DNA of 64,000 nt from Vicinamibacteria bacterium. GTDB lineage: Bacteria; Acidobacteriota; Vicinamibacteria; Marinacidobacterales; Marinacidobacteraceae. A program made the position numbers and the translations under genes. The notes below the pieces were generated by a model, which worked only from the letters and a program-made list of their open reading frames with translations, had not been told where the DNA came from and made no database searches. Positions 3,379 through 63,462 of the stretch are shown here, piece after piece. Position 1 is the stretch's first letter; each line of letters starts with the position of its first letter. The stretch is from contig CAXXLQ010000004.1 in the NCBI GenBank assembly GCA_963668695.2, positions 608,001 to 672,000 on the forward strand, written 5' to 3'.

Positions 3379-4159
3379 ACAGCCGGTGGTGGAACCCGGG
3401 TGAGCGCCGAGCCCGGTGAGGCCCAGTTCTCCCGGTGGGGCCAGTTCTCCCGGTGGGGGCCCGGCTGACAAGGCGCGTGAGGGAGGAGCCCCCACCGGGA
3501 GAACTGGCCCGAGTGTATTTCGACCGAAACGCAACGATGAGCGGCGCAAAGCGGAGTGGTGAACAGCCGGTGGTGGAAGCCGCGTGAGCGCCGAGCCCGG
3601 TGAGGCCCAGTTCTCCCGGTGGGGCCAGTCCTCCCGGTGGGGCCAGTTCTCCCGGTGGGGGCCCGGTTGACAAGGCGCGTGAGGGAGGAGCCCCCACCGG
3701 GAGAACTGGCCCGAGTGTATTCCGACCGAAACGCAACGATGAGCGGCGCGCAGCGACGCGGTGAACAGCCGGTGGTGGAACCCACGTGAGCGCCGAGCCC
3801 GGTGAGGCCCAGTTCTCCCGGTGGGGCCAGTTCTCCCGGTGGGGGCCCGGCTGACAAGGCGCGCGAGGGAGGAGTCCCCACCGGGAGAACTGGCCCTGGT
3901 GTATTTCGACCGAAACGCAACGATGAGCGGCGCGAAGCGACGCGATTCAGCCGGGATGGATCGCTGGCCGAGCCCCCACCGGGAGAACTGGGCCGCGTGG
4001 GTTTCACTACCGGTTGTTTGGCCGGGATGGATCGCCGGCCGAGCCCCCACCGGGAGAACTGGGCCGCGTGGGCTCCGCCACCGGCTGTCTGGCCGGGATG
4101 GATCGCCGGGCGAGCCCCCACCGGGAGAACTGGGCCGCATGGTTTTCACCACCGGCTGT
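3379..4159. mobile_element. MITE-like family A, triple self-nested copy
   Basis: Three left termini (3379, 3563, 3765) and three right termini (4017, 4088, 4159); 13 copies of the 18-bp unit. Confidence 0.8.
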
Positions 4160-7008
4160 TAAGAAGCGCGCCGGGCCGCCGGCGCCGGCTCCAGAATCTC
4201 ACGCAGATAGCGCCCGGTCCAGGATTCGGTGTTCCGGGCCACCGCCTCCGGGGTCCCACAGACGACGACCTCGCCGCCGCGACCCCCGCCGTCGGGGCCG
4301 AGATCCACCAGGTAGTCGGCGGTCTTGATCACGTCCAGGTTGTGTTCGATCACTACCACCGTGTTCCCGGCGTCCACCAGACGGTCCAGGACCCGGAGCA
4401 GACGGGCGATGTCGTCGAAATGGAGCCCGGTGGTGGGCTCGTCGAGGATGTAGAGGGTGTCGCCGGTGGACCGCTTCGCAAGTTCGCGAGAGAGCTTGAC
4501 CCGCTGCGCCTCCCCTCCCGAAAGGGTCGGGGACGGTTGTCCCAGCCGGATGTAGCCGAGTCCCACATCCTGGAGCGTCTCGAGAATGTGCAGGATGCCG
4601 GGCTGGGACCGGAACACGGTGATGGCTTCGCTCACCGTGAGGTCGAGCACATCGGCGATGGACCGGCCCTGGTATCGAACCGTGAGCGTCTGGTCGTTGA
4701 AACGCCGTCCGCCGCACACCTGGCAGGACACGAAGACATCGGCCAGGAAGTGCATCTCCACCCGGATCATCCCGTCTCCGTGGCAGTGCTCGCAACGCCC
4801 GCCGGGCACGTTGAAGGAGAAGCGCCCCGGGCGATACCCCTGGGCGCGTGCCGCCGGCAGAGCGGCGAAGAGCAAGCGGATGCCGTCGAAAACCTTCGTG
4901 TAGGTGGCCGGGTTGGAACGCGGGGTGCGGCCGATGGGAGACTGGTCAATGTCCACCACCCTTCCGACGCGTTCCATCCCCTCGATGCGGGAGTGCGGAC
5001 CCACCGGACGCTCCGAGCGGTGGAGCGCGCGGGCGAGCGCCCGGTAGAGAACCTCGTACACGAGGGTGCTCTTGCCGGCGCCGGAGACTCCGGTCACGCA
5101 GGTGAAGGCTCCGAGCGGAATCCGGACATCCACTTCCTTCAGGTTGTTCGCGCGAGCCCCGACGATCCGGACGGAATGCGGTGCGGAGCGCCGGCGGGGC
5201 GGGACGGGGATCTCGAGATCTCCGCGGAGATAGCGTCCGGTGAGAGATTTCGGATCGTTCCGGATCTGCTCCGGAGACCCCTCGGCCACCACTTCCCCGC
5301 CGTAAACCCCAGCCCCCGGGCCGAAGTCCAGCACGTGGTCCGCGGACTCGATGGTCTCCCGGTCGTGCTCCACGACCACCACGGTGTTCCCGATGTCCCG
5401 CAGCCGATGCAGCGCTTCCAGGAGCTTCCCGTTGTCGCGTGGGTGCAGGCCGATGGACGGCTCGTCGAGGATGTAGATGACCCCCGTGAGCTCCGAGCCG
5501 ATCTGGCTGGCCAGCCGGATGCGCTGGGACTCGCCGCCCGAGAGGCTGGGCGCCAGGCGATCGAGCGAGAGGTAGCAGAGCCCCACGTCGGCGAGAAAAC
5601 GGAGCCGATTCCGGATTTCCTTGAGGAGTTCGGCGCCGATGACCAGCGCCGTGCCCTCGAGTTCGAGACTCCCCGCGAGTTCGAGAGCATCCTCGATGGC
5701 CATCGAGGAGATATCCGCGATGGTCCGGCCGCCCACCGTGACGGCGAGCGCCTCGGGACGCAAACGCGTGCCGTCACAGGCGCGGCAGGCGCGGCTCGAG
5801 AAGAAGCGCGCGTAATAGCGCCGCGCCCGGTCGGAGGAGGTTTCCCGCATCCGGCGGGTGAGCACGTTGAGCACTCCCTCCCATTGCACCGGTCGGGAAC
5901 TCTTTTGGTAATTGACGGGAATCCGCTCGCGGCCGGCGCCGGACAGCAGGATCTTCCGCTTGGCGGCGGCGAGACGCTCCCACGGGCGGTCGAGATCCAC
6001 CTCGAACCGCTTCGCCACCCCCCGAATCACCGTCGCCTCCCAGCCGTCCTTCTCGGCGAACCGGCCCCAAAACGCCACCGCGCCCTCGTTGATGCTCAGG
6101 CGCGGATCGGGGACCACGAGGTCCTCGTCCACCTCGCCGCGGGCGCCGAGGCCGTTGCACTCCTTGCACATGCCCTGGGGGCTGTTGAAGGAGAAGAGCT
6201 GCGGAGAAAGCTCGGGGAATCCGATGCCGCAGCTCGGGCAGCCGTTCTTTTCGGAGAAGACCCGGTCCCGGGACTCCCCTTCGACCGCCGCGATCACGAT
6301 GCCGTCCCCCTCGCGAAGCGCGGTCTCGACCGAATCGGTGACCCGCCCCCGCCATTCCTCGCTGACCGGCTCCTTTCGGGCCAGCCGGTCCACCACGATC
6401 TCGACGTTGTGCTTCTTTCGCTTCTCGAGGGCCTCGACTTCCTCGATGAGCTGGACCTCCCCGTCAATCCGCGCCCGGGAGAAGCCGCGGCGCAGGATGG
6501 TCTCCAGGGTGGAGCGGAACTCGCCCCGGCGGTTTTCGAGCACCGGCGCGAGGAGCAGAAACCGCGAGCCGGCCGGGAGATTCGCGAGTTCCTCGACGAT
6601 CTCCTGGGCGGTCTGCGGGCTTACCGCCCGGCCGCAGCGAGGACAGTGGGCGACCCCGACCCGGGCGAAGAGCACCCGCAGGTAGTCGGAAATCTCCGTG
6701 ATGGTCCCGACCGTGGAGCGGGGATTGTGGCTGGCCGACTTCTGATCGACCGAGATTGTCGGAGAGAGCCCCTGGATCGTGTCGTAGAGGGGCTTGTCCA
6801 TCTGCCCGAGGAACTGGCGGGCGTAGCTGGACAGCGATTCGACGTAGCGACGCTGACCTTCGGCGTAGAGGGTGTCGAGCGCCAGGGACGACTTTCCCGA
6901 CCCCGAGACCCCGCTCAGAACGACGAGGCGCTTCTTCGGAATACGAACGGTAATGTTCTTGAGATTGTGCTGCCTGGCGCCCCGCACCACGATGCGATCG
7001 GGCTCCAT
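4159..7008 (-). CDS. uvrA: Excinuclease ABC subunit A
   Basis: 'IVVRGARQHNLKN', two Walker A motifs (GVSGSGKS, GVSGAGKS), LSGGE signatures, Zn fingers. Confidence 0.98.
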   Translation of the reverse strand: MEPDRIVVRGARQHNLKNITVRIPKKRLVVLSGVSGSGKSSLALDTLYAEGQRRYVESLSSYARQFLGQMDKPLYDTIQGLSPTISVDQKSASHNPRSTVGTITEISDYLRVLFARVGVAHCPRCGRAVSPQTAQEIVEELANLPAGSRFLLLAPVLENRRGEFRSTLETILRRGFSRARIDGEVQLIEEVEALEKRKKHNVEIVVDRLARKEPVSEEWRGRVTDSVETALREGDGIVIAAVEGESRDRVFSEKNGCPSCGIGFPELSPQLFSFNSPQGMCKECNGLGARGEVDEDLVVPDPRLSINEGAVAFWGRFAEKDGWEATVIRGVAKRFEVDLDRPWERLAAAKRKILLSGAGRERIPVNYQKSSRPVQWEGVLNVLTRRMRETSSDRARRYYARFFSSRACRACDGTRLRPEALAVTVGGRTIADISSMAIEDALELAGSLELEGTALVIGAELLKEIRNRLRFLADVGLCYLSLDRLAPSLSGGESQRIRLASQIGSELTGVIYILDEPSIGLHPRDNGKLLEALHRLRDIGNTVVVVEHDRETIESADHVLDFGPGAGVYGGEVVAEGSPEQIRNDPKSLTGRYLRGDLEIPVPPRRRSAPHSVRIVGARANNLKEVDVRIPLGAFTCVTGVSGAGKSTLVYEVLYRALARALHRSERPVGPHSRIEGMERVGRVVDIDQSPIGRTPRSNPATYTKVFDGIRLLFAALPAARAQGYRPGRFSFNVPGGRCEHCHGDGMIRVEMHFLADVFVSCQVCGGRRFNDQTLTVRYQGRSIADVLDLTVSEAITVFRSQPGILHILETLQDVGLGYIRLGQPSPTLSGGEAQRVKLSRELAKRSTGDTLYILDEPTTGLHFDDIARLLRVLDRLVDAGNTVVVIEHNLDVIKTADYLVDLGPDGGGRGGEVVVCGTPEAVARNTESWTGRYLREILEPAPAARRAS

Positions 7009-7037
7009 GGACTGTTCCGGGAGTCTAAAGGTTGGGG

Positions 7038-7290
7038 GCGGCCAGTCCCCCCGGTGGGGGCCTAGCAGCGCTGGGCAGTTCTCCCGGTGGGGCCCTTCAG
7101 ACCGGCATCGCTCCCGGCAGGGGAGCGAAACTCCCAGCGCCAGTCCCCGCATGGCGCAGCCGGCAACGAGGATGGCGCAACGCAATCCCGCCCAGGAACG
7201 CCGGTCTTCAGGCCCCCACCGGGAGAACTGGCCAGCATCGCGGCCGCAGGCCGCGAAACTCCCGTCGCCAGTCCCCGCATGGACCAGCAA
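7038..7290. repeat. REP-like family B cluster carrying three 18-bp units
   Basis: GGAACGCCGGTCTTCAG..CC.GCATCGC motifs shared with 17720, 23391, 27660, 34998 and 49362. Confidence 0.6.
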
Positions 7291-7465
7291 AAACCCCAGG
7301 AACGCTGGCCCGTTCTTCCGGTGGAGGTCGGCACCGCGGCCCGACAGGGCCGCGAAACCGCGTGCCGCCCCGCGCCTGCGTGGCGGCCCTCTGAATGACG
7401 TGGGCGACACCGAAGCCCAATACACTCTTCGCTTCGTCCAACTCCGAAAGGCCCTCCCCGCACCC

Positions 7466-8398
7466 ATGCACAACTCCGCCGCCATCGGTTACGACCAGCC
7501 GCTGTTCATCCAGCCCTTCGACCACCGGGGCAGCTTCACGAAGTCCTTCTTCGGCTTCCGCGGCGCCCCGGAAATCTCTCCCGGCAGCGACCGATTCGCG
7601 CCGGTGGCGGCGGCGAAAAGCCTGATCTATCGCGGCCTCCTCCAGGCGATCGAGGGCGGCGTTCCGAAGGAGCAGGTGGGGATCCTGGTGGACGCCCAGT
7701 TCGGCAGCCAGATCCTGGCCGACGCCGACGCCCGGGGGATCCCGCGGGCGGTCTGTATCGAAAAGAGCGGCCAGCCAGTATTCGACTTCGAGTACGGCGC
7801 GGGGTGGGTGAACCACATCCGCTTTCACCGGCCGGACATCGTGAAGGTGCTGGTCCGCCTCCACCCCGACGACCCCGCGGCCGATACCGCGCAGCAACTC
7901 ACCCGGCTCAAGCTCGCGTCGGACTACCTGCACGGCCCGGAACGGCGCCTGTTCATGTTCGAGCTGCTGGTGCCGGCCACCACCGACGAGGACAAGGAAG
8001 CGGGCGCGACCTACGACCGTGACCTCCGCCCCGGCCACATGGTGCGAGCGATCCACCTGATCCAGGACTTCGGCATCGAGCCGGACATCTGGAAGATCGA
8101 GGGAGTGGACCGCGGAGAAGACGCGGAACGAGTCGCGGCGGCGGCTCGCAGCGGACCCGGCCGGGAGCGGGTCGGCTCCATCGTCCTGGGGCGCGGCTCC
8201 GATGCTGCACAGGTCCACGAGTGGCTGCGGGTAGCGGCCCCGGTGGACGGCTTCATCGGCTTCGCCGTCGGCCGCACCAACTTCCGCGAACCGCTGGGTT
8301 CGCACCTCGCCGGCCAGCTCGACGAGGCGGACGCCATCGCGCAAATCGCCGCCAACTACCGGTCCTGCGTGGACACCTGGCGCGCCGCCCGGGATTGA
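7466..8398 (+). CDS. DUF2090 / IolC-C-terminal-like aldolase-fold protein
   Basis: 'PFDHRGSF', 'GILVDAQFG', 'EKSGQ..FDFEYG', 'PDIWKIEG', 'VLGRG', 'GFAVGRT'. Confidence 0.8.
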   Translation: MHNSAAIGYDQPLFIQPFDHRGSFTKSFFGFRGAPEISPGSDRFAPVAAAKSLIYRGLLQAIEGGVPKEQVGILVDAQFGSQILADADARGIPRAVCIEKSGQPVFDFEYGAGWVNHIRFHRPDIVKVLVRLHPDDPAADTAQQLTRLKLASDYLHGPERRLFMFELLVPATTDEDKEAGATYDRDLRPGHMVRAIHLIQDFGIEPDIWKIEGVDRGEDAERVAAAARSGPGRERVGSIVLGRGSDAAQVHEWLRVAAPVDGFIGFAVGRTNFREPLGSHLAGQLDEADAIAQIAANYRSCVDTWRAARD

Positions 8399-8744
8399 GC
8401 GGCCCGGTCCAGGGACCGCGCATCCCGCTTTCTGATCACCTGACGCGCTGCCCTTCGTCGGCGCTTCCTACGTCCTAGCGGGCATCCAACGAGCAACGCT
8501 TGGTGGTTGCTGCATAGCTGGCGGCCGTCCATCCAGCGTCCTCCTTGGATACGGCAAGACAGTCATCGAGGAGCACGGCAGCCGCCTGCTCAGCACATTC
8601 ACACGGGAATTTCGCCGGTTCACACCGGAACCGAAAAAACGCGACTACCGCCAAAGCACGATCGGATCTTCGCTTTGCTCCGGGAGCGGAGGTAGTTCAG
8701 GACCTCCTGATCGCGTTCATCCGGGGTGAGCGGGGGAGGTCACC

Positions 8745-9047
8745 GTGCAGTACACGTTCTATGTCGAAATCTTGATGGTGGGCAGGGGTAAGGAAATCTC
8801 CTGGTCCGTAATGGATCCGAGCATGGGCTTCGTTGCGGAGGCAAAGACGCTGACAGATATTCTCCGGCGCGTTCAGCCCCACTACGAGCACATCGAGAAG
8901 ATTCTCAAGGAGCGCGACGGCGGTTCGACTGTCCATGTTGTGTTTGTCCCGCCTCGATACAGCATCCCCGCCCCCGGTCGCGCCGGATCGGTGCGCCCGC
9001 CGGGGTCGCTACGGATGCCCGCGGTCGACCTTGACGACCACAGTTAG
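8745..9047 (+). CDS. Hypothetical protein
   Basis: GTG start with GGGGGAGG RBS; ends 8 bp before the next ORF. Confidence 0.5.
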   Translation: MQYTFYVEILMVGRGKEISWSVMDPSMGFVAEAKTLTDILRRVQPHYEHIEKILKERDGGSTVHVVFVPPRYSIPAPGRAGSVRPPGSLRMPAVDLDDHS

Positions 9048-9055
9048 GCGGGATC

Positions 9056-9748
9056 ATGACGGAGAGGGGCGAGATGATCCGCAAACAGATAGCCCTGCCC
9101 GACCACCTGAGGCGGTTCCCGTGCCTGATGCCATGGGTCGGCAGGTTCTACCGGGACGACCTCCACCGGCGACTCCTGGTGGTTGCCGAGAGCCACTACC
9201 TGCCGGAGTCAGTCACCTGGCACCGGAATCCTGAAGCGTGGTACGCCAGCAGTCAGGATCGTTTGGATACGGAAGCGACTGGCTGGATTCACACTCAGGG
9301 GTGTGTGCGGTTCCACTGGAACGGCCCTTCCTTGATCTTTCCCAGGATCCGCGAACAGATCTCCATTTCCGTTGAGGCAGATGGAGTAGAGGAGGCGCCG
9401 GCCCCCGGACACTTCGAGCACATCGCGTTCATGAACTTCTTCCAGCGCCCGGCCCCTCACAAAGGCCGGAGCATTAGGGGTCACGTGGTCGAGCAGGACC
9501 TGGAGGTGGCGAGAGAGGTGCTCCGGTGGTTCATCACGACCCACGAGCCAGAGCTGGCCGTCGTCACCTCCGTATTCGCCAGCAAGCACGCCGGGCCGGT
9601 GTTCGAGGAGCGCGGCATCCCCTGGGGGCAAACTCCACACCCCGTTTGCGCCCATTGGCACCGGATCGTAAAGAAGTACGGAGGTATCTCCGGGGCTCAT
9701 CTGTTCCCGGTGTTCCTCACCGCGCACGAATGGATGAGAAGCCGCTGA
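9056..9748 (+). CDS. Hypothetical protein, uracil-DNA-glycosylase-like superfamily
   Basis: 'PWVG..Y...LLVVAESHY', 'AFMNFFQRP', 'PE..VV', late 'PHP' motif, in the order typical of the UDG-like fold. Confidence 0.55.
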   Translation: MTERGEMIRKQIALPDHLRRFPCLMPWVGRFYRDDLHRRLLVVAESHYLPESVTWHRNPEAWYASSQDRLDTEATGWIHTQGCVRFHWNGPSLIFPRIREQISISVEADGVEEAPAPGHFEHIAFMNFFQRPAPHKGRSIRGHVVEQDLEVAREVLRWFITTHEPELAVVTSVFASKHAGPVFEERGIPWGQTPHPVCAHWHRIVKKYGGISGAHLFPVFLTAHEWMRSR

Positions 9749-10004
9749 CCAGCCGGAGGGACCGTGAGAACACTCCGGAATGCCCGCACCTTCGCCGAGC
9801 GGAATGAGGCTCGGATCGTGTGAATTGCGAAGACTTGCGATGGTTTGGTAGCGTGAGTAGTCCGCGCCCTGCGGGGACGGCGGGCCTCGGGAGGCCTCGG
9901 CCTCCGGCATCAATGTGCGTAATTGCACGTTTTGTCCCTTCAGTGAGGAACCGTGCCACCAAAAAGTGGCCAATGCCGCCCGTCGTCCCCGCCCGGGTGC
10001 CGGA

Positions 10005-11486
10005 TCAACCAGCGCCCAGGCGTTCGCTGCCGGACCGGGCTGCTTCGACCAGCGCCGCCACCCGGCCCACGGTTTCCTCGAGGGTGAGATCGCTGGTGTC
10101 CAGCAGGTGCGCATCCCGGGCCCGGCGGAGCGGAGCCACCGCTCGGCCGGCATCCTTGTCGTCCCGGCGATGGAGTTCCGACTGGACCGCCCCTACGTCG
10201 CGGTCCCCCTCGTCGGAGGAGCGGCGGCGCGCTCGCACTTCGGGGCTCGCGTCCAGAAAGACCTTCACCGGCGCTTCGGGGAAGACCACGGTGCCGATGT
10301 CCCGGCCTTCGACGACGCCCCCCACCGCTGCCGCCTGCCGCCAGCGCTCGACCAGAACTTCGCGCAACTCGGGATGGACGGCGACCCGGGAGGCCCCCGC
10401 GGATACCTCCGGCTCGCGGACCGCAAGGGACACGTCTTCCCCGTCGAGGAACACGTGGCCCTCCCGATCGAGAATCACGCGATAGGCGAGAGTCCGCAGC
10501 GAGGGGCCGTCATCGAGATCCAGGTCCTGCCGCATCGCAGCCAGCGCGACCGCCCGCACCGACGCACCGGTGTTGAAGTAGGCCAACCCGAACCGCTCGG
10601 CGACCGCCCGGGCGACCGAGGTCTTGCCGGACCCCGCCGGCCCGTCGATCGCGACGACGAAGGCCGCCGGGGCGGTCGGGGTGGGGGGGCCGGGCGGTTC
10701 GGTACCCGACGACGCCAGGGAAGTCGCCGCTTCCCCCGAACACCGCTGGATCAACTCCCGCAGTTCCTCCACCTCACCCGCATCCAGCTTGCGCCAGCTC
10801 CCCGGGGTGAGCCCGATGTCGGCAAGACAACCGATCCGCGTGCGGTGCAATTCGAGGACCGGATGGCCCAGGACACTCAGCACCCGCCGGATCTCCCGGT
10901 TCCGGCCACCCAGGAGGGTGACCCGGAGCCGGGCGCGGCGCTTCGATTCCGCGCGGTGCGGGAAACGGGCAATGACCTCGATCTGATCGAGCTTCAGCCC
11001 CTGGCCATCCACCCGGACTCCGCGCTGCGCCCGTTCGAGCACCTCTTCCTCGGGAAGCCCGCGGACGGTGACGTAGTAGGTCTTGGGCAACCGGTAGCGG
11101 GGATGGGTGACCCGCTGAGCGAGTTCCCCATCGTCGGTCAGGAACACGAGCCCCGAACTGTTGCCGTCGAGCCGCCCCACCGGAACAAGCGAGCGGAACG
11201 AATGGGGAAGAAGATCCATCACCGTGGGCCGACGCGCCGGGTCCGACCGGGTCGTGAGATGGCCGAGGGGTTTGTTGAGAACCACGTACCGCCGAGGCTT
11301 GGCGCGGCTGCGGAGCCGCGTCCCGTCCACCCGGATGTCACTGAGCGCCGGGTCCGCCCGCACCCCCGGAACCCGAACCACCTCACCGTCCACGGTGACC
11401 CGGCCTTCGGCGATCATCTGCTCCGCGCTGCGGCGCGAGGCGATCCCGGCGGCCGCAATCAGCTTCTGGAGCCGCGCCGCCGTCAT
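10005..11486 (-). CDS. Fused RluB-type pseudouridine synthase and cytidylate kinase (Cmk)
   Basis: S4 domain 'RLQKLIAAAGIASRR' and catalytic 'PVGRLD'; then 'VAIDGPAGSGKTS', 'EGRDIGTVVFP', 'RRD..D..R..APL'. ATGA overlap with scpB. Confidence 0.9.
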   Translation of the reverse strand: MTAARLQKLIAAAGIASRRSAEQMIAEGRVTVDGEVVRVPGVRADPALSDIRVDGTRLRSRAKPRRYVVLNKPLGHLTTRSDPARRPTVMDLLPHSFRSLVPVGRLDGNSSGLVFLTDDGELAQRVTHPRYRLPKTYYVTVRGLPEEEVLERAQRGVRVDGQGLKLDQIEVIARFPHRAESKRRARLRVTLLGGRNREIRRVLSVLGHPVLELHRTRIGCLADIGLTPGSWRKLDAGEVEELRELIQRCSGEAATSLASSGTEPPGPPTPTAPAAFVVAIDGPAGSGKTSVARAVAERFGLAYFNTGASVRAVALAAMRQDLDLDDGPSLRTLAYRVILDREGHVFLDGEDVSLAVREPEVSAGASRVAVHPELREVLVERWRQAAAVGGVVEGRDIGTVVFPEAPVKVFLDASPEVRARRRSSDEGDRDVGAVQSELHRRDDKDAGRAVAPLRRARDAHLLDTSDLTLEETVGRVAALVEAARSGSERLGAG

Positions 11487-12160
11487 TCCGAGCCGTCTCC
11501 GCTTCCGGTACCGGCGCCGCGCCCGGCAGCGGTCTCCGGCTCCGCCGCGCTGCCCCCCGCCGGCGCCGGAACGGCCGCCGCCAGTGCGTCCTCGAACTCG
11601 CGGAGTTTCGGAAGATCCTCCAGCCGATCCAGTTCGAACCGCTCCAGGAATTCCTTTGTCGTTCCGTAGAGGAGCGGGCGTCCCACCACCTGCTTGCGTC
11701 CCCGGGAGCGGATCAGGCGGTGTTTCATGAGCGTGGCAATGACGCTTTGGGAGTTCACGCCGCGGATCTCGTTCAACTCGGGCACGGTGATCGGTTGCCG
11801 GTAAGCGATTACCGACAGCGCCTCGATCGCCGGCTCGGTGAGGGCCTGCTCCCGCTTCGGGGCCATGAGGCGCTCGATGGCCTCCCGCCATTCCATCCGG
11901 GTCGTGAGCTGGAAGCCCCCGGCAATCCGGGCCAGCCGAAGTCCGGAGCCCGAGTGTGAATACCGCACCTCCAGCTCGTCGAGCGCAAGCTGTACGACCC
12001 TCGCGTCGGTTTCGAGCGCCTGCGCCAGCCGTTCTGGCGTTACCGGGGCGCCGTGGGAGAAGAGCAGTGCCTCCACGGCGGCCGCGAGGCGGGCGCAGTC
12101 TTCGGCCGAATCCGGCGCCCCCTCGGGAGCGTCTGCGGGCTTCAGCGGGATATCCGACAA
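11483..12160 (-). CDS. scpB: SMC-Scp complex subunit ScpB
   Basis: 'VEALLF', 'IAYRQPIT..E...IRGV', 'GRPLLYGTTKEFL..F.L..L.DLP'. Start codon uncertain. Confidence 0.95.
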   Translation of the reverse strand: MSDIPLKPADAPEGAPDSAEDCARLAAAVEALLFSHGAPVTPERLAQALETDARVVQLALDELEVRYSHSGSGLRLARIAGGFQLTTRMEWREAIERLMAPKREQALTEPAIEALSVIAYRQPITVPELNEIRGVNSQSVIATLMKHRLIRSRGRKQVVGRPLLYGTTKEFLERFELDRLEDLPKLREFEDALAAAVPAPAGGSAAEPETAAGRGAGTGSGDGSE

Positions 12161-12164
12161 GGAC

Positions 12165-12995: not shown

Positions 12996-12997
12996 TG

Positions 12998-13376
12998 GCA
13001 GTCCGTGGACAAGGTGGGGCGAGCACCGAGAGCGCCAGTTCTCCCGGTGGGGGCGAGGCGCCCGGCTGACAAGGCGCGCAAGGGAGGAATACCAGTGGTC
13101 TTTCGACCGAAGCGCAACGATGAGCGACGCGAAGCGGAGTGGTTCAGCCGGGATGCATCGCCGGCCGCTTCCGGAGCGGGGCGTGAGCACCGCGGAGACC
13201 CCAGAGCACGGGGGATGGAGGGCGGCAACAGCCGACTCCCATCCCTCCTACCTCGGGCTTCCGGAGCGGGGCGTGAGCACCGCGGAGACCCCGGAGCACG
13301 GGGAATGGAGGGCGGCAACAGCCGACCACCATCCCTTCTGACTCGGGAATGCCCGCTCACCTTGTTCACGGGCTGC
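12998..13376. mobile_element. MITE-like family A copy with internal 2x90-bp direct repeats
   Basis: Termini GCAGTCCGTGGACAAGG / CCTTGTTCACGGGCTGC (15/17 inverted match), TG on both flanks; direct repeats start at 13167 and 13257. Confidence 0.7.
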
Positions 13377-14394: not shown

Positions 14395-14396
14395 AA

Positions 14397-14649
14397 ACAG
14401 CCTGTAGACAAAGTCACGCGGCCCAGTTCTCCCGGTGGGGGCTCGACCGGCGATGCATCCCGCCTGAACCGCGCCGCTTCGCGTCGCTCATCGTTGCGCT
14501 TCGGTCGAAATACACTCGGGCCAGTTCTCCCGGTGGGGGCTCCTCCCTCGCGCGCCTTGTCAGTCGGGCCCCCACCGGGAGAACTGGCCCCACCGGGAGA
14601 ACTGGGCCTCACCGGTCTCGGCACTCGCGTCACTTTATCCACAGGCTGT
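14397..14649. mobile_element. MITE-like family A copy
   Basis: ACAGCCTGTAGACAAAGT...ACTTTATCCACAGGCTGT; four 18-bp units. Confidence 0.8.
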
Positions 14650-14663
14650 TGAGCGTCGGCATT

Positions 14664-16520: not shown

Positions 16521-16525
16521 CTCTA

Positions 16526-16724
16526 GCAGCCTATGGTGGAACCCGGGCGGCGTTCGAGCAGCGATGCATCCCGGCTGAACCGCGCCGCTTTGCGGCGCTC
16601 GGCGTTGCGTTTCGGTCGAAATACACTCGGGCCAGTTCTCCCGGTGGGGGCTCCTCCCTCACGCGCCTTGTCAGCCGGGCACCTCCCCGCTCTCGGCACT
16701 CACCCGGGTTCCACCACCGGCTGC
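16526..16724. mobile_element. MITE-like family A copy (one 18-bp unit)
   Basis: TA|GCAGCCTATGGTGGAACCCGGG...CCCGGGTTCCACCACCGGCTGC. Confidence 0.8.
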
Positions 16725-16747
16725 CAAGACTAACCAAAAGGATTTTC

Positions 16748-17719: not shown

Positions 17720-17995
17720 GGGAACGCCGGTCTTCAGGCCGGTGAGGCGGCGCGCAGGGCCGCAAGACCGCGGATCGCCGACCGCGAAGAAGCGCGGGGA
17801 CGGCTTGGAACGCCGACCTCTGGGCAGTTCTCCCGGTGGGGCCCGGCCCAGCGGCCCGCAGGGACGCGGCGGCGAAGACCCCGAACAACAGGATGGTTCC
17901 CGTCTCAGCGCGAACCCCCGCTAGCTGGGCAGCACCGTGACAGCGGGAACGCCGATCTCTGGCTAGTCGTCCCGGTGGGGGCCAGCATCGCGCGC
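17720..17995. repeat. REP-like family B cluster with 18-bp unit variants
   Basis: GGAACGCCG.. motifs at about 17721, 17807 and 17946. Confidence 0.55.
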
Positions 17996-18028
17996 CGGGC
18001 GGGTGAAAGGCGCAAGCGGTCCCTCTTT

Positions 18029-22172: not shown

Positions 22173-22390
22173 ACAGCCTGTGGCAAAACCCACACGGCGT
22201 TCGACCGGCGATCCATCCCGGCTGAACCGCGTCGCTGCGCGCCGCTCATCGTTGCGTTTCGGTCGAAATACACCCGGGCCAGTTCTCCCGGTGGGGGCTC
22301 CTCCCTCACGCGCCTTGTCAGCCGGGCGCCTCGCCGGCCAGTTCTCCCGGTGGGGGCCTCGGCGCTCACGTGGGTTTCACCACAGGCTGT
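22173..22390. mobile_element. MITE-like family A copy
   Basis: TA|ACAGCCTGTGG...CCACAGGCTGT|TA. Confidence 0.82.
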
Positions 22391-27737: not shown

Positions 27738-27853
27738 ACAGCCTGTGGTGAAGCCCCGGCGGCGTTCGAGCGGCGATGCATCCCGGCTGAACCGCCCCCC
27801 CACCGGGAGAACTGGCCGCTCTCGGCGCTCACCCGGGTTCCACCACCGGCTGT
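27738..27853. mobile_element. MITE-like family A, internally deleted copy
   Basis: TTAA at both junctions; adjacent REP-like family B copy at 27660-27720. Confidence 0.78.
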
Positions 27854-33924: not shown

Positions 33925-34380
33925 ACAGCCTGTGGTGAAACCCGCGTGAGCGCCGAGAGCGGCCAGTTCTCCCGGTGGGGGCGAGGCGCCCGGCTGGCAA
34001 GGCGCGTGAGGGAGGAGCCCCCACCGGGAGAACTGGCCCGAGTGTATTTCGACCGAAACGCAACGCAGAGCGCCGCGAAGCGCCAGTTCTCCCGGTGGGG
34101 GGGCGGTTCAGCCGGGATGCATCGCCGGTCGAACGCCGCGTGGGTTTTGCCACAGGCTGTTAACAGCCTCTGGTGGAACCCGGGTGAGCGCCGAGAGCGG
34201 CCAGTTCTCCCGGTGGGGGCGAGGCGCCCGCCTGACAAGGCGCGTGAGGGAGGAGCCCCCACCGGGAGAACTGGCCCGAGTGTATTTCGACCGAAACGCA
34301 ACGAAGAGCGCCGCAAAGCGGCGCGGTTCAGGCGGGATGCATCGCCGGTCGAACGCCGCGTGGGTTTTGCCACAGGCTGT
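33925..34380. mobile_element. Two tandem MITE-like family A copies sharing a TA (33925-34160, 34163-34380)
   Basis: Junction CACAGGCTGT-TA-ACAGCC. Confidence 0.82.
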
Positions 34381-35839: not shown

Positions 35840-37808
35840 ATGAAGAGACTCCAAGCAGCCTGTGAACAAAGTCACGCGGCCCAGTTCTCCCGGTGGGGAC
35901 TTGAGCGGCGATCCATCCCGGCTGGCCCCCACCGGGAGAACTGGCCGCCCCGCTTCGCGTGGCTCATCGTTGCGCTTCGGTCGGAATACACCAGGTATTC
36001 GTCCCTCGCACGCCTTGTCAGCCGGGCGCCTCGCCCCCACCGGGAGAATTGGCGCTCTCGGCGCTCTCGCCACTTTGTCCACAGGCTGCTAACCCTCCTG
36101 GCCGTCGCGGGCGTCGCCCCGACGGGCCTCGCCTGCGGCCCCTCCGGGCCGGCCGCCGATGCGATCTACCGCAATGCGAAAGTGGTAACCGCCGACGACG
36201 ACTTCAACATCGCCGAGGCTTTCGCGGTGGTGGATGGACGGTTCGCGGCGGTGGGCTCGGAGGAGGCAGTCGAGGAAGCCTTTCCCGGCGGCGCCGCGGA
36301 GGTCGTGGATCTCCAGGGGAAGACGGTCCTTCCGGGGTTCAACGACAACCACATCCACCTCGGCCCCGGCCGGGCCCTGCAGCGCTGGGAAGACGGGCTG
36401 GTACCCGGACTGCCGGAATGGTCGGCGGAGGCGACCGAGCCGGACGAGCTCTTCGCCGCGCTGGAGGCGGAGGCAGCTACGAGGTCGCCGGGCGAGTGGA
36501 TTCGCGGCGGGCTCACCCGGATGGACTGGCCGAACAGCCGGATCCCGGACCGCTGGCTCCTGGACGAGGCCGCCCCCGACAACCCGGTGATGCTCACCCG
36601 CGGGCCCCACACCTACTTGCTGAACTCACCGGCGCTGCAACTCGCGGGAATCGACCGCAACACGCCCGACCCGGAGGGGGGCTGGATCTTCCGCGACGCG
36701 AACGGCGAACCGACCGGCCGCGTCCTCGAAGCGGCGCGCCGGATCGTGGATCGAGTCCTTCCCCCGGCGCCGGAAGTCCCCTACGAGAGGGGCATCGAGA
36801 CCATGCGCGCGACGCTGGGCAAGCTGGCCGCCATGGGGATCACCAGCGTGAACATCGCCGGGGTCCGGCCGAGGGGGATTCCGGCGGTGCGGGACCTCTA
36901 CGCCCGCTACGGCGAGGAGCTACCGCGGGCGACGATGCAGGTGCGCCTGAGCCCCGGCCACGACACCTACGACGACCCGGAGGAAGGGATACGGCGCGAG
37001 ACCCAAGCGCTCGAAGAACTCGGCTTCGTTACCGGCGAGGGGGACTCCCGTTTCCGGGTCGGCGCGGTGAAGATGAGCATTGACGGCGGCCTGAGCGCTC
37101 CGGTGTTCTGGTCGCTCGAGCCCTACGAGGGCCGGCCCGACTTCTTCGGCGCCATCCGCATCCCGGCCGAGGTCTTCCATCCGGTCGCGAAAGCGAGCCC
37201 ACGAACTCGGCTGGCAGCTCGGCATCCACACCATGGGCGACGGCGCCGTGAAGATGGTGGCGGAAGCGATGGCCCGCATCCTGGACGAAATCCCCCGCGA
37301 GGACCACCGGCACTACCTGCACCACGTGGCGGTCAAACCACCCGCGGACACCATCGCGCTCATGGCGGAGCACGGCATCATGGTGGCGAGCCAGCCGTCC
37401 TTCACCGTGGGGCTCGGCGCCTACGCCGAGGAGGCGCTCACCGCCGAACGGGAAGCAACCCAGAATCCGACCCGTTCCCTGCTCGACGCCGGAGTTCGCG
37501 TCTCCCACGGCTCCGACTCGGCGCCTTACGGGCCGCTGATCACGATCTGGACCGCGGTCACCCGGCGGGGCTTCGACGGCGAGGTGCACGGGCCGGAAGA
37601 AGCGGTCAGCATCGAGGAAGCGATCCGCCTGCACACCCGGGAGCCGGCCTTCTTCACCTTCGAAGAGAGCGAGAAGGGCACCATCGCCGAGGGCATGTTG
37701 GCCGACTTCATCGTGCTGTCCGACGACATTCTCACGGTCCCGGTGGACGACATCCGCGACCTGCGGGTCGAGCGAACGTTCATCGGCGGCCGGGAGGTCA
37801 AGCCGTAA
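35840..37808 (+). pseudogene. Amidohydrolase-3 (YtcJ-like) lipoprotein with in-frame MITE in the signal peptide and a +1 frameshift
   Basis: 'DLQGKTVLPGFNDNHIH', 'K..IDG', 'HGSDS', 'KGTI..G.LADF'. An extra A at 37190-37192 separates 'PVAK' from 'RAHELGWQLGIHTMGD'. May be a sequencing error. Confidence 0.75.
35855..36089. mobile_element. MITE-like family A copy inside a coding region
   Basis: GCAGCCTGTG...CACAGGCTGC; 235 bp plus 2 bp = 79 codons, frame open. Confidence 0.85.
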
Positions 37809-43576: not shown

Positions 43577-43793
43577 ACAGCCTATGGGCAAGGTGGCGCG
43601 AGCGCCGAGGCCAGTGAGGCCCAGTTCTCCCGGTGGGGCCAGTTCTCCCGGTGGGGGCCCGGCTGACAAGGCGCGCGAGGAAGGAATACCGAGCGTATTT
43701 CGACCGAAGCGCAACGATGAGCGACGCGAAACGGAGTGGTTCAGCCGGGATGCATCGCCGGTCAAACGCCGCGTGACTTTGTCCATAGGCTGC
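43577..43793. mobile_element. MITE-like family A copy
   Basis: TA|ACAGCCTATGG...CCATAGGCTGC|TA. Confidence 0.82.
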
Positions 43794-49361: not shown

Positions 49362-49517
49362 GGGAGTTTCGCGGCCTGCGGCCGCGATGCCGGTCTGAAG
49401 GCCGCTACCGCGAGAACCGACCGGCGCTCCCAGCCCTCCCCGCGCTTTTTCTTCATCGGGAGTACGCGCTTTCGCGGCCCTCCGGGCCGCGATGCCGACC
49501 TGAAGGTCGGCGTTCCC
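49362..49517. repeat. REP-like family B cluster
   Basis: GATGCCGGTCTGAAG..CCGGCGCTCCC and GATGCCGACCTGAAGGTCGGCGTTCCC. Confidence 0.6.
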
Positions 49518-50391: not shown

Positions 50392-50609
50392 GCAGCCTGT
50401 AGACAGAGTCTCGTGGCGTTCGAGCGGCGTTGCATCCCGGCTGAACCGCCCCGCTTCGCGTGGCTCATCGTTGCGCTTCGGTCGAAATACACCCGGTATG
50501 CCTCCCTCGCGCGCCTTGTCAGCCGGACCCCCACCGGGAGAACTGGGCCTCGCCCCCACCGGGAGGACTGGCCGCTCTCGGCGCTCACGCCACTCTGTCC
50601 ACAGGCTGC
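50392..50609. mobile_element. MITE-like family A copy
   Basis: GCAGCCTGTAGACAGAGT...ACTCTGTCCACAGGCTGC. Confidence 0.8.
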
Positions 50610-57011: not shown

Positions 57012-57554
57012 CTAGCGACGCCCCACCTCGAGTTGAGTGGTAATCCTTACGAGCACCGCGCCGTCCGTCTGACGCGTCTCGCTGATCACTTCCGTGGAGA
57101 GCACCGAATCGTGATTCGCCAGTCCCGACAGAAAGCGGGCAACGGCAGCGGCAGAAGTCGCGTCAGCCGCAATGACTGCCTCCACCCGGCCGGGGCCGGT
57201 CGCGGGGCGAACCTCGAGCCCGGCAATCCGGATATCCGAAGGGGCAATCCCCATCACGGTGTCCAGTGCAGCACTGATGTCGGGGGCATTGACCACCCCG
57301 GCGAGGAGCAGGACCGCCGCTTCCCGGGCGCGCTCGGGTTCGACGAGTGGCGCCGCGGCGCCTCCCGTACCGGATGACGGCAGCCCGCTCGAAGCTGAAA
57401 GCCCAGGCGCCGCCAGTTCCACTCGCACTCCCCAGAGCGATGCGGCGCCCCACACGACACTCACGAACATCCCGGCGACCAGCACGTCCAGGGCCCGGAG
57501 AACACCAGGGCGGACGCCCTTGCCGAGCTGAATGCCAACGGGTAGTCGAGCCAT
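57012..57554 (-). CDS. PilN-like protein
   Basis: Start MARLPVG; TM followed by 'P.DIRI..L', 'F.S.L' pattern; lies between the pilM-like and pilO-like genes. Confidence 0.55.
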   Translation of the reverse strand: MARLPVGIQLGKGVRPGVLRALDVLVAGMFVSVVWGAASLWGVRVELAAPGLSASSGLPSSGTGGAAAPLVEPERAREAAVLLLAGVVNAPDISAALDTVMGIAPSDIRIAGLEVRPATGPGRVEAVIAADATSAAAVARFLSGLANHDSVLSTEVISETRQTDGAVLVRITTQLEVGRR

Positions 57555-57559
57555 CGTTA

Positions 57560-57830
57560 ACAGCCTGTGGTGAAGCCCGCGTGAGCGCCGAGAGCGGGGA
57601 GGCCCAGTTCTCCCGGTGGGGCCAGTCCTCCCGGTGGGGGCCCGGCTGACAAGGCGCGTGAGGGAGGAGCCCCCACCGGGAGAACTGGCCCGAGTGTATT
57701 TCGACCGAAACGCAACGCAGAGCGCCGCAAAGCGCCAGTTCTCCCGGTGGGGGGGCGGTTCAGGCGGGATGGATCGCCGCTCGAGCCCCCACCGGGAGAA
57801 CTGGGCCGCGTGGGTTTTGCCACAGGCTGT
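57560..57830. mobile_element. MITE-like family A copy
   Basis: TTAA at both junctions; five 18-bp units. Confidence 0.85.
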
Positions 57831-58765
57831 TAACCATCCGTAGTCGCGACGGGAGTCGATCGGAGCGGCGCCGGCCTTTCGCCGACCCGTCGCAGGAGCG
57901 CGGCGAGCGCTCCCTCGGTCACCGGAGACACTGCGGAAGATTCGGGGCCCTCGCCGGTGTCGCGGACCTCGACGAGCGTATGACCAGCCGAACGCAGGAC
58001 GTCCGCGGCCACCGTCGCGCCATCCCCCCAGACCACAACGGGATGCCTCCCGCTTTGTGTCGCACGCCGAACCGCGAGCGCCGGCGGTTCCGGATCCAGC
58101 GCGGCGCGGAGTTTCATTCGAAAACCCGTAAGGCGCCGGCCCGAAGCGGCGGCGAATACAAAGTGGCGGCGGTGCAGCAGTAGCAGCAGCCGCCGGCCCG
58201 CATCGCTCGAGAAGCGCGCGAGCCACTCCGGAAGTACCGCGAGGCTGGTGGCGTCCACCCACCGGACCCGGAGACCGGCCGCCTCAACGGCCGCCTCATA
58301 CTGCTGGACAACCGGGGATCCCGTCACCGCCCCCAGCACGGAGCGGCGTCCGCGGGAACCCGAAGTCAGCGTTCCGAAACGGAACCGCCCGTCGAGTTTG
58401 TGGAGTTCGGGACCTGAACTTGCGGTCAAACCACGGACCAATTCGCTGCGCAGCTTGCGTACGGCTCGCGATCCGGCGACCTCAGACAGCGCGGCATGGG
58501 CAGCGCGATCGGGCAACGCGATCACGGCGTCAGCGAATCTGCTGCCCGGTGAAGCAAGAGTGCCGAGAGCGGCTCGGACCGCCCGGGCCGCCTCCACCGA
58601 CGAGCCCAGGTTCGGCTCGGTTGGCGAGGGAGTCAGCAAGTCCCCGGGCAGGCGCCAGGTGATCCAGCGACCATCACTGGTTCGAACGAGAACGTGATCT
58701 CGCCGAAACGCCATCGCCACGGCCTGCCGTCGAGGACCGAGGGGAGGAAAGGAGAGCAGGGACAA
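57830..58765 (-). CDS. PilM-like (actin-like fold) protein
   Basis: 'L.PS..EPN', 'IALPD', 'V.QYE...EAAGL....VD..SLA'. Start uncertain. Confidence 0.6.
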   Translation of the reverse strand: MSLLSFPPLGPRRQAVAMAFRRDHVLVRTSDGRWITWRLPGDLLTPSPTEPNLGSSVEAARAVRAALGTLASPGSRFADAVIALPDRAAHAALSEVAGSRAVRKLRSELVRGLTASSGPELHKLDGRFRFGTLTSGSRGRRSVLGAVTGSPVVQQYEAAVEAAGLRVRWVDATSLAVLPEWLARFSSDAGRRLLLLLHRRHFVFAAASGRRLTGFRMKLRAALDPEPPALAVRRATQSGRHPVVVWGDGATVAADVLRSAGHTLVEVRDTGEGPESSAVSPVTEGALAALLRRVGERPAPLRSTPVATTDG

Positions 58766-58795: not shown

Positions 58796-59049
58796 GCAGC
58801 CGGTGGTGAAACCCACGCGGCGTTCGACCGGCGATCCATCCCGGCTGAACCACTCCGCTTCGCTGCGTTCTGCGTTGCGTTTCGGTCGAAATACACCCGG
58901 GCCAGTTCTCCCGGTGGGGGCTCCTCCCTCACGCGCCTTGTCAGCCGGGCCCCCACCGGGAGGACTGGCCCCACCGGGAGAACTGGGCCTCGCCCCCACC
59001 GGGAGAACTGGCCGCTCTCGGCGCTCACCCGGGTTCCACCACCGGCTGC
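58796..59049. mobile_element. MITE-like family A copy
   Basis: CTAG at both junctions. Confidence 0.85.
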
Positions 59050-59051
59050 TA

Positions 59052-60191
59052 GTGTGGTGTCCCGCAAATGGCGATGATAATATGGGGTCCTCCCAGGAGG
59101 TCCCCATGCCGAAAGGACGCCCCCTGTCGCCACTCGTCCTCGATGAGGAACAGCGAGGCCAACTGATGGCCCTGTCCCGATCCACCTCCATGCCCCACGG
59201 ACTGGTGCAGCGGGCGCGGCTGATTCTCGCGAGCGCCGAAGGCCTCTCCAACCAGGCGGTGGCGGAACGCGTCGGCCTCACGCCCAACGTCGTGGGGAAG
59301 TGGCGACGCCGCTTCCGGGAGGCCGGGGTCACCGGCCTCCACGACGAACTCCGCCCGGGACGGCCGCGCACCTACAGCGACGAGAAAGTGGCGACGCTCA
59401 TCCACCATGCCCTCCAGGAAGAGCCCGACAATGCCACCCATTGGAGCGTGCGCTCCATGGCGGACGCGCAGGGAGTCTCCAAGAGCACGGTGCAGCGCTG
59501 GTTCACCCTGTGCGGCGTCAAGCCGCACCTGACCCGGACCTTCAAGCTCTCTACCGACCCCTTCTTCATCGAGAAAGTCCGGGACATCGTGGGGCTCTAC
59601 CTCCATCCACCGGACAACGCCATGGTCCTCTGCGTGGACGAAAAGTCCCAGATCCAGGCCTTGAACCGCACCCAGCGAGCCTTGCCCCTGGGCCTGGGCT
59701 ATGTCGAGGGCTACACCCACGACTACCTCCGCCACGGCACCACCACCCTCTTCGCCGCCCTGGATGCCGCCACCGGAAAGGTCATCGCTCGCTGCCGCCA
59801 GCGGCACCGCCATCAGGAGTTCCTCGACTTCCTGCGTCTCATCGACCGCGAAACTCCGGGAGATCTTGACCTCCACCTGGTGGTCGACAACTACGCCACC
59901 CACAAACACCCCAAGGTCCGCGCCTGGCTGGCCCGCCGACCTCGTTTCCACCTCCACTTCACCCCGACCTATGCCTCCTGGCTCAACCAGGTGGAGCGCT
60001 GGTTCGGACTCATCAGCCAGCAGGCCATCAAGCGCGGCAGTTTCCAAAGCGTCACCCAGTTGAAGCAGACGATCATGGCTTTCACCGACCAATACAACCA
60101 CAACTCCACCCCCTTCGTCTGGGTCGCCACCGCACAATCCATCCTGGAGAAGCTGGAACGACTAGCAACTCGTATTTACAGGACACCACAC
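59052..60191 (+). mobile_element. IS630-family insertion sequence
   Basis: TIR GTGTGGTGTCCYGYAAAT (16/18), TA duplication at 59050-59051 and 60192-60193. Confidence 0.92.
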
Positions 60192-60194
60192 TAG
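59106..60194 (+). CDS. IS630-family transposase
   Basis: '[10 protein letters not shown]', 'HDY.RHGT', 'VVDNYATHK', '[16 protein letters not shown]'; CAGGAGG RBS; stop codon uses the target TA. Confidence 0.95.
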
Positions 60195-60272
60195 CAGCCG
60201 GTGGACAAAGTGACGTGAGCGCCGAGGCCCCCACCGGGAGAACTGGGCCGCGTGACTTTGTCTACCGGCGGC
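60194..60272. mobile_element. Minimal MITE-like family A copy (ends plus one 18-bp unit)
   Basis: GCAGCCGGTGGACAAAGT...ACTTTGTCTACCGGCGGC. Confidence 0.7.
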
Positions 60273-62730: not shown

Positions 62731-62927
62731 TCCCCTCGGGGACGCGCGTCCGGTCCGGCGCGCTGATCCGCGGCTGCCGTAATGCGCTCCGCGGGAGGGC
62801 ACTTCCGCGCATCTCGTCGGCCTCGGAGGTCGTTGCTCCCGCTTCCCGATCCCGGCTCAGGGATCGCGGCGGGAGGCGCGCATGCTTCCCGGAACCACCC
62901 CCGTGGTACCGGGGGGCGGGGTGTTTA

Positions 62928-63462
62928 GCAGCCCCTGGACAAAGTCATGCGGCCCAGTTCCCCCGCTGGGGGCCTCGCCGCTCACACCCCCGGTTCCACA
63001 GGCTCCTAGCAGCCTGTGGCAAAACCCACGCGGCGTTCGACGGGCGATGCATCCCGCCCAAACAGCCGGTGATGAAACCCACGCGGCCCAGTTCTCCCGG
63101 TGGGGGCTCGGCCAGCGATCCATCCCGTCTGAACCGCGTCGCTTCGCGCCGCTCATCGTTGCGTTTCGGTCGGAATACACTCGGGCCAGTTCTCCCGGTG
63201 GGGGCTCCTCCCTCACGCGCCTTGTCAGTCGGGCGCCTCCCCGGCCTCGGCGCTCACGTGGGTTCCACCACCGGCTGTTCACCGCCCCGCTTCGCGGGGC
63301 TCTGCGTTGCGCTTCGGTCGAAATACACCCGGGCCAGTTCTCCCGGTGGGGGCTCCTCCCTCGCGCGCCTTGTCAGCCGGGCCCCCACCGGGAGGACTGG
63401 CCCCACCGGGAGAACTGGGCCTCGCCCGTCTCGGCGCTCACGCAGGTTTCACCACAGGCTCC
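62928..63462. mobile_element. Family A cluster: minimal copy 62928-63006 plus nested pair (outer 63009-63462, inner 63062-63278)
   Basis: Shared TA at 63007-63008; nesting junctions mirror those at 3379-4159. Confidence 0.8.

Follow-up and report, generated by a model that had tools for sequence, protein, structure and literature searches.

Copies of a TA-targeting MITE family at operon junctions of an uncultured marine acidobacterium

Introduction

Why should copies of one repeat family lie again and again between the stop codon of one gene and the start codon of the next? The question is raised by a 64,000-nucleotide stretch of DNA (the window; contig CAXXLQ010000004.1, positions 608,001 to 672,000, assembly GCA_963668695.2) from Vicinamibacteria bacterium, an acidobacterium. 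[quoted passage not shown] It proposed that the elements supply stop codons, that they leave little room for a separate ribosome-binding site and that they may be looped or processed out of the mRNA. The family is followed here through the window's own genome (G000) and its relatives. Its MITE-like character was borne out, at 15 loci, about 4.2 kb and with a TA duplication. It is best read as a modular, non-autonomous transposon of high copy number, which duplicates its TA target and favours the context YTAR (Y, pyrimidine; R, purine), and its pattern at operon junctions as mainly the outcome of target choice and purifying selection. We put the probability of this reading at about 0.8.

Materials and Methods

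G000 comprises 4.1 Mb at 67.6% GC, which is also the GC content of the window, and its completeness is 91.7%. Element termini were located by a motif scan and by a 34-nt hidden Markov model (HMM) of the terminus, which was applied genome-wide. The gene set consists of our own calls by a codon-usage score. It holds 3036 genes over 81% of the genome, and the called stops are TGA (1874), TAG (855) and TAA (307). The element interior is asymmetric, and orientation was scored by three marker motifs. For six window sites the comparison covered 7-16 genomes of the genus, with 12 loci each for uvrC/trpS and trpS/scpA. None of the conclusions draws on the unpublished genome G027. The null for element position was taken from YTAR sites that hold no element and lie in element-free intervals no longer than 500 nt, and RNA folds were predicted for 236 simple copies.

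Structure and Target Site of the Element Family

The window contains 14 blocks bounded by RCAGCC...GGCTGY and one degenerate copy (Table 1). Thirty-two termini in the window fit a single consensus and form terminal inverted repeats of the MITE type. In the genome as a whole the HMM locates 1458 termini. The well-formed blocks made up of them number 434 and sum to 142,377 bp, or 3.5% of the sequence. Simple pairs of termini (n = 499) have a median length of 217 bp, and typical copies measure about 180-240 bp. The terminal inverted repeats are imperfect, about 30 bp long, and read RCAGCC.GTGG... at one end and ...CCAC.GGCTGY at the other. The interior is built of interchangeable modules around the palindrome-forming motif CCCCACCGGGAGAACTGG, and the internal 16-mer CCACCGGGAGAACTGG occurs 1303 times in G000. 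The core motif is present in 21 of 27 genomes of one family of the order and in none of the 33 genomes searched in other families.

TA adjoins 786 of the 1458 termini, against a TA frequency of 1.16% in the genome. The base beyond the TA is mostly a pyrimidine on the left and a purine on the right (TTAA 243, CTAG 240, TTAG 124, CTAA 96). Most termini that lack a TA flank are internal to composite arrays, where they have the fixed neighbours CAAA (176) and TGAA (154). Of the 499 pairs, 166 agree with a 2-bp duplication of TA and complementary R...Y ends, and 18 have non-complementary ends. Tandem copies have one TA in common (34160/34163). A 4-bp YTAR duplication of the IS5- or piggyBac-like kind was considered and rejected, as 72 pairs with unequal 4-mers fit a TA duplication with R...Y ends; the pairs explained by a 4-bp duplication alone number 18.

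Searches of the window against Rfam returned no family at gathering score, and the open reading frames (ORFs) that cross elements have no Pfam match. A full-text literature search on MITEs, Acidobacteria and sponges found no description of the family. Terminal inverted repeats, a target-site duplication, small size, many copies, lack of coding capacity and presence/absence polymorphism are all found; a related autonomous insertion sequence (IS) with the same ends was found neither in G000 nor among the IS630 types of the genus. The family is thus a MITE by all defining features except a known autonomous partner.

Two further observations concern the architecture of the repeats. In the array at 3379-4159, three units of about 202 bp each open with a left terminus; behind them come three 71-bp units, each of which closes with a right terminus. 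The same +++--- pattern recurs in ten blocks genome-wide. A second set of repeats with the core CCGGGAGAAC, other flanks and no RCAGCC termini lies at 7037-7343, 17807-17997, 23266-23557 and 49385-49431 (families D18 and D19). It may represent another family or old fragments.

Stop and Start Codons at Element Ends

The original prediction listed six genes whose stop codons overlap element termini, and all six overlaps are real. In uvrA, the 45-aa ORF, the 'pilM-like' ORF, the IS630 transposase gene and rplQ, the stop consists of the flanking TA plus the first R of the element; the position of the trpS stop is different (Table 1). Elements were also said to end 2-14 bp before six starts. This holds for rhomboid, for trpS and scpA (ATG 2 nt past the element end in each), for the 'pilN-like' ORF (ATG, 5 nt) and for the symporter (TTG, 14 nt). 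It fails for uvrC, which starts not at the GTG at 16520 but at a conserved ATG 29 nt away from the element, at 16496. All seven relatives align from residue 1 at this ATG. The uvrC/adh site is moreover a divergent region and not an operon junction. The names pilM and pilN find no backing either, with 0 Pfam families at E≤0.1, and for the 45-aa ORF no Pfam name was found. Both of the ORFs called 'pilM/pilN-like', and their adjacency, are kept in 16 of 16 genomes of the genus.

The idea that the elements supply stop codons is not supported, as it was worded, by comparison with relatives. The TA belongs to the target, and empty orthologous sites have a stop at the same place. The element thus takes the place of the last base of a stop codon already there, and no new stop is created. 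Insertion into the TA of a stop always restores TAA or TAG because both element ends start with a purine. Among the junction genes compared, only trpS gains codons from an element: at filled trpS/scpA loci the terminus gives the last three trpS codons and the stop. A start codon is involved at another place. In G001 and G004 (loci L087 and L092), another MITE ending in ...GGCTGT TA lies directly before the ATG of the small ORF that precedes the symporter, and the resulting sequence is TAATG.

Empty Orthologous Sites in the Genus

Each of the six window sites is filled in one to four genomes and empty in the rest. The uvrC/trpS junction is filled in 3 of 12 loci (G000, G001, G004), and the nine empty junctions read TAG, 14 nt, ATG, with no GGAG-like motif. 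The trpS/scpA junction is likewise filled in 3 of 12 (G000, G004, G008); at the nine empty ones the two genes overlap by ATGA or GTGA or stand a few nucleotides apart. At uvrA/rhomboid the four filled sites among 16 (G000, G008, G007, G009) carry different subfamilies, and the 12 empty sites have a stop (TAG or TGA), 4-9 nt and a start. Three of 16 genomes have an element between the ORFs at 57830 and 57554. G000 and G001 share one insertion there and G008 holds a different subfamily; the other 13 have a stop, 1-12 nt and a start. Between the small ORF and the symporter only G000 is filled (1/16), and the other 15 genomes have a stop, 8-20 nt and a TTG or GTG start. The element between the divergent genes uvrC and adh is found in G000 alone among eight genomes, and the seven relatives have a divergent spacer of 28-52 nt.

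This is the comparison with orthologous empty operons that the original prediction had proposed, and it indicates that the junctions were already -4 to about 20 nt wide before insertion. Empty junctions mostly lack a Shine-Dalgarno (SD) motif. Judged from these alignments, the elements landed in junctions that were already tight, and the same junctions were struck more than once in the genus.

Some trpS/scpA junctions counted as empty deserve separate mention. In G011, G003, G010 and G002 (loci L005, L006, L009, L012), about 12 nt match the MITE terminus (ACAGCCCGTGAA). These nucleotides form the last trpS codons, the stop and the GTG start of scpA. The remnant may be a trace left when a former element was deleted between the copies of a short TGAA repeat.

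Position of Elements Relative to Available Targets

Genome-wide, 431 of the 434 blocks were assigned to intervals between called genes. Coding sequence holds 73% of all TA and 22% of YTAR sites, and we conclude that insertions into genes are removed. At 141 of the 434 blocks, the TA+R of an end serves a called gene as its stop codon. Of the 418 sides of arrays turned toward a gene start, 91 lie within 15 nt of it and 36 within 5 nt. Twenty-eight co-directional intervals have a stop touching the element on one side and a start at ≤15 nt on the other, and 70 have a residual spacer of ≤30 nt. Tight co-directional junctions of this last kind are not depleted of elements (64 of 431 blocks vs 142 of 2411 YTAR sites).

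Stop codons account for 32.8% of null YTAR sites and for 45.7% of observed positions, the latter counting any overlap with the 3' end of a gene (odds ratio 1.7). Positions within 15 nt of a start make up 18.8% of null sites and 29.7% of those observed (odds ratio 1.8). Most of the position pattern is therefore target choice. The caveat in the original prediction that scarcity of TA drives the bias was largely right. Its stronger form, that the distribution of TA explains the bias fully, holds for most of the pattern and leaves a 1.4-1.6-fold enrichment, which may come from selection against insertions in promoter regions or from a bias in our own start calls.

These counts suggest how the pattern could arise. 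YTAR is rare in this genome of 67.6% GC, and a large part of the YTAR sites where insertion does no harm are the stop codons TAA or TAG, which often lie just a few bases ahead of another gene. An element inserted at such a site then accounts for nearly all of the 'intergenic' space at an operon junction that used to be tight. We therefore read the pattern mainly as target choice and purifying selection and not as a designed spacer.

RNA Folding, Orientation, and Translation

The terminal 25 nt are predicted to pair with the other end in 95-100% of the folded copies, in all contexts. Pairing covers 18.9 of 25 nt at tight junctions vs 20.6-20.8 elsewhere. The transcribed strand of the uvrC/trpS copy has a predicted folding energy of -174.6 kcal/mol (z = -11.1). 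In this fold the terminal stem closes 13 nt past the stop of uvrC and 2 nt ahead of the AUG of trpS. Transcription presumably runs through the elements, which would form very stable hairpins.

Orientation is biased where transcription would run through the element. In co-directional intervals the marker motifs lie on the non-transcribed strand in 172 cases vs 91 on the transcribed strand (p = 7e-7), and at residual spacers of ≤30 nt the ratio is 44 vs 13. Divergent intervals have no such bias (37:31). Replication strand was considered as a cause and rejected, as no bias by replichore was found. The disfavoured strand is predicted to fold at -0.61 kcal/nt and the favoured strand at -0.52, a difference seen in nearly every copy (p = 2e-40). 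The disfavoured strand has a long GC stem followed by GUGUAUUUCG; the favoured orientation lacks this combination of strong stem and U-rich run. The elements are under selection in transcripts, since the less stably folding orientation is about twice as common between co-directional genes. We infer that the more polar orientation has been purged from operons, which speaks for selection on the transcript and gives no evidence of a positive role. A generic promoter and terminator scan of 3001-23000, with counts no higher than in shuffled sequence, returned one terminator-like hit within the copy at 22173-22390, where GTGTATTTCG comes after a stem on the strand called F. This is no more than a hint that the F orientation is polar.

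The original prediction argued that the elements leave little or no room for a separate ribosome-binding site. The tight spacing stands, and the argument loses force because empty junctions also lack an SD motif and SD use looks low genome-wide: a core SD motif lies upstream of 26% of called starts vs 12.5% in a control window. The downstream genes are most likely translated by SD-independent initiation.

A separate observation bears on initiation. Seven nucleotides separate the uvrC ATG from a conserved TACAAT box upstream of it, and the uvrC/adh spacing is 28-52 nt in relatives (window 16497-16525; loci L062-L068). This suggests that the uvrC mRNA is leaderless. Together with the weak SD signal, the box hints that leaderless or SD-independent initiation is common in the organism.

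Contigs assembled from four metatranscriptome runs were compared with window positions 12000-17000. Element sequence is present at high depth, summed over many copies and organisms. The contigs hold pieces of trpS and uvrC but break at the repeats, and their joints link modules of different copies. Among the contigs listed, all of which break at repeats, none bridges gene, element and gene or joins precisely across an element.

The Mobilizing Enzyme and the IS630 Link

Duplication of TA is the behaviour of IS630/Tc1-mariner-type transposases, and an enzyme of this type would probably mobilize the elements in trans. Six of the 16 genomes of the genus carry DDE_3 genes of the IS630 family. They fall into five types with inverted repeats flanked by CTAG/TA; IS630 copies and MITEs use the same targets. 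Copies of type A adjoin a MITE terminus in 8 of 12 cases across the genus (loci L041-L061), and MITE flanks seem to be preferred landing sites of IS630. Of the 34 DDE_3 matches of the genus, 31 fall in the four genomes with the most copies of the core motif (1303, 644, 581 and 546). These genomes form one clade, and the association of IS630 with the MITEs is therefore only circumstantial. The IS630 copy in the window was rejected as the autonomous partner; it has its own ends and merely sits in a TA between two MITE copies.

Evidence Against the Preferred Reading and Alternative Explanations

Several results weigh against a TA-duplicating MITE placed mainly by target choice and purifying selection. 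One group concerns the enzyme. No transposase with matching ends had been seen in the window, and none bounded by MITE termini was found in the rest of G000 either. In G000, eight terminus pairs lie 600-4000 bp apart. Six are free of called genes; the other two surround ordinary genes, for an amidase and for a NuoN-like protein. The five IS630 types have inverted repeats of their own, none like the MITE ends, in a search that did not extend to other transposase families in relatives or to metagenomes. IS630 ends begin with GTGTGGTGTCC, TACATAGCGCC, GTGTCRTGTCAC or GTAGAGCGATTCC, and MITE ends with RCAGCCNGTGG. Ten of 16 genomes have no DDE_3 match, yet the core motif is found in all 16. As to the target site, several junction copies have no clean TA on one side: the flanks are TA/TG at uvrA/rhomboid in G000 and CA/TT at uvrC/trpS, and the copies in G007 and G009 are further examples. 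Not all insertions can be reconstructed as a simple TA duplication. As to position, the enrichment at stops and starts above the YTAR null remains, the gene calls are home-made with approximate start positions, and a trimming rule shifts starts toward element ends (13 genes). Finally, no result explains the translation of genes that start 2-8 nt behind a GC-rich stem of >20 bp.

The alternative put forward in the original prediction starts from the terminal repeats, which would pair in the mRNA. The element would then loop out or be removed, with RNase III as one possible enzyme, and the upstream stop and downstream start would come together, so that coupling is kept and the elements serve as functional operon spacers. 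We consider this unlikely. The predicted geometry fits, as the uvrC/trpS fold illustrates, and downstream genes are intact in several element-carrying species. The empty junctions are tightly coupled (-4 to 16 nt) and lack an SD motif, and therefore coupling is probably needed and would be physically broken by insertion. The same junctions have been struck repeatedly, by different subfamilies and in different species, and tight co-directional junctions show no shortage of elements. A homologue of RNase III is encoded in the genome, and there is a precedent in Neisseria, where RNase III cuts Correia elements at their inverted repeats (PMC10969869, PMC2649163). Terminal pairing, however, is common to all copies, at 95-100% in convergent, divergent and co-directional contexts alike, and is slightly weaker at just those junctions where it should matter. 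The orientation favoured in operons is the one with less stable RNA, and availability of YTAR accounts for most of the positional bias. A wider form of the same thought, that the hairpins are tolerated and perhaps co-opted as operon spacers, with a ribosome or RNase III opening or removing the stem and element ends occasionally recruited as coding sequence, is equally doubtful. It would expose a start 2-8 nt behind the stem and couple expression across an insert of 200-800 nt. The recruited coding sequence appears to be present at trpS/scpA, in the last three trpS codons and stop taken from a terminus and, elsewhere, in the 12-nt remnant that includes the GTG start of scpA.

It is improbable that the elements carry an outward promoter and/or ribosome-binding signal from which downstream genes are expressed. 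The orientation bias exists only where a gene in the same direction lies downstream, the uvrC/adh element leaves 29 and 23 nt of non-element DNA for two promoters, and Correia elements are reported to create promoters at their ends (PMC2649163). Against this, divergent intervals are unbiased, no GGAG/GAGG motif occurs in the last ~20 nt of the termini, and the TACAAT box conserved upstream of uvrC is not part of the element. A sigma-70 consensus scan of 3001-23000 returned two sites, none in elements and at shuffle level, which is a weak test since the promoters of the phylum are uncharacterized. It is very improbable that the repeats are palindromic units of the REP/BIME type, spread by a RAYT (Y1/HUH) transposase and not by cut and paste. 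The interior is modular, and the short palindrome-forming motif of which it is composed is also found away from complete elements (7037-7343, 17807-17997, 23266-23557), and no matching DDE partner was found. Yet G000, at its 91.7% completeness, has 0 matches to Y1_Tnp (PF01797), and 30-bp terminal inverted repeats, TA duplication and clean presence or absence at empty sites all speak for a cut-and-paste MITE.

Features of the Window

Table 1. Coordinates of elements, and of stop and start codons at their ends, in the window.
Feature	Position	Strand	Context
rhomboid ATG	3369-3371	minus	8 nt past element
Composite MITE array, 781 bp, three left and three right termini	3379..4159		between uvrA stop and rhomboid start
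uvrA stop TAA	4159-4161	minus	
Degenerate, internally duplicated MITE	about 13005..13365		between trpS and scpA
trpS stop TGA	13366-13368		inside degenerate terminus
MITE, 253 bp	14397..14649		between uvrC stop (TAG 14664-14666) and trpS ATG (14392-14394); markers sense-oriented
MITE, 199 bp	16526..16724		divergent uvrC/adh; 29 nt to uvrC ATG (16496), 23 nt to adh ATG (16748)
MITE, 218 bp	22173..22390		intergenic, downstream of second hipA-like gene
Short MITE, 116 bp	27738..27853		TTAA at both flanks
Two tandem MITEs	33925..34160 and 34163..34380		one TA between them
MITE, 235 bp	35855..36089		after short-chain dehydrogenase gene
MITE, 217 bp	43577..43793		TA at both flanks; between stop of conserved 45-aa ORF and symporter TTG (43560-43562)
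45-aa ORF stop TAG	43793-43795		
MITE, 218 bp	50392..50609		between convergent TenA-like and aldehyde dehydrogenase genes
MITE, 271 bp	57560..57830		TA at both flanks; between stop of ORF 57830-58765 and ATG of ORF 57012-57554
'pilM-like' ORF stop TAA	57830-57832		
MITE, 254 bp	58796..59049		adjoins left end of IS630-family IS
IS630-family IS, outside the MITE family	59050..60193	plus	transposase ORF 59106-60194; inverted repeats begin GTGTGGTGTCC
IS630 transposase stop TAG	60192-60194		
Mini-MITE, ~79 bp	60194..60272		adjoins right end of IS630; first base completes transposase stop TAG
Cluster of three or four MITE copies	62928..63462		between EF-G-like gene and rplQ
rplQ stop TAG	63462-63464	minus	

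Other features of the window lie outside the element family. Two adjacent pairs of helix-turn-helix and HipA-like kinase genes and a gene for a ParE-like toxin occupy 18061-19688, 20184-21718 and 22563-22892. A 125-nt direct repeat is found at 20815-20939 and 22426-22550. An IS481-like transposase (rve_3, LZ_Tnp_IS481) lies at 29729-30928. The 191-aa ORF at 37233-37808 matches only the C-terminal part of Amidohydro_3 (profile 284-471 of 472), and the gene may start further upstream or be broken.

Relation to Known Repeats and Significance

The elements have counterparts in other bacteria. They resemble the RUP elements of the pneumococcus, which are small, non-coding and high in copy number, with terminal inverted repeats, a hairpin and locations near IS, and for which a link to IS630 is proposed (PMC3049150). 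The repeats of RUP resemble those of its IS630 partner (IS630-Spn1), whereas none of the five IS630 types does so here. The present elements are also longer, GC-rich and modular, with ~430 blocks in 4.1 Mb. The Correia elements (CREE/NEMIS) of Neisseria are abundant and co-transcribed with adjacent genes, form a hairpin that is a substrate of RNase III and can affect the expression of neighbours (PMC10969869, PMC2649163). They, too, are bounded by inverted repeats, and they are the best precedent for the idea that elements are processed out. They differ in that there is no sequence similarity and no match in Rfam or to another family, and the present elements are known from sequence alone, in an uncultured marine host.

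The BOX elements of Streptococcus pneumoniae are modular, with a variable number of internal units, and overlap stop codons as the present elements do. The pneumococcal study counts 36 cases in which the repeat encodes the stop codon of a gene (PMC3049150), and stop codons supplied by repeats were therefore already known. The same study describes pneumococcal repeats as enriched between convergent genes and argues that they are poorly tolerated between co-transcribed genes (PMC3049150). In contrast, 281 of 431 blocks here lie between co-directional genes, compared with 2149 of 3025 intervals, and no depletion is seen. Chunjie of Geobacter uraniireducens is a MITE (PMC3184786, PMC10969869) that reportedly lies inside an operon. 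It is A+T-rich with 9-bp direct repeats (PMC3184786), so its target differs, and presumably also the family of its transposase. MITEs that target TA and repeats that overlap stop codons are thus already known.

What stands out is the density of the family: in this uncultured marine/sponge acidobacterium, ~430 blocks make up 3.5% of a genome of 4.1 Mb. A GC-rich hairpin of 200-800 nt lies directly before a start at no fewer than 28, and at as many as about 70, tight operon junctions, and the affected downstream genes include the essential-looking trpS and scpA. The elements also distort gene calls, through longer ORFs and false starts, and break short-read assemblies of both RNA and DNA. For the organism itself, the junctions form a natural test bed for SD-less initiation behind a strong stem, for avoidance of polarity and for the filtering of element orientation in transcripts.

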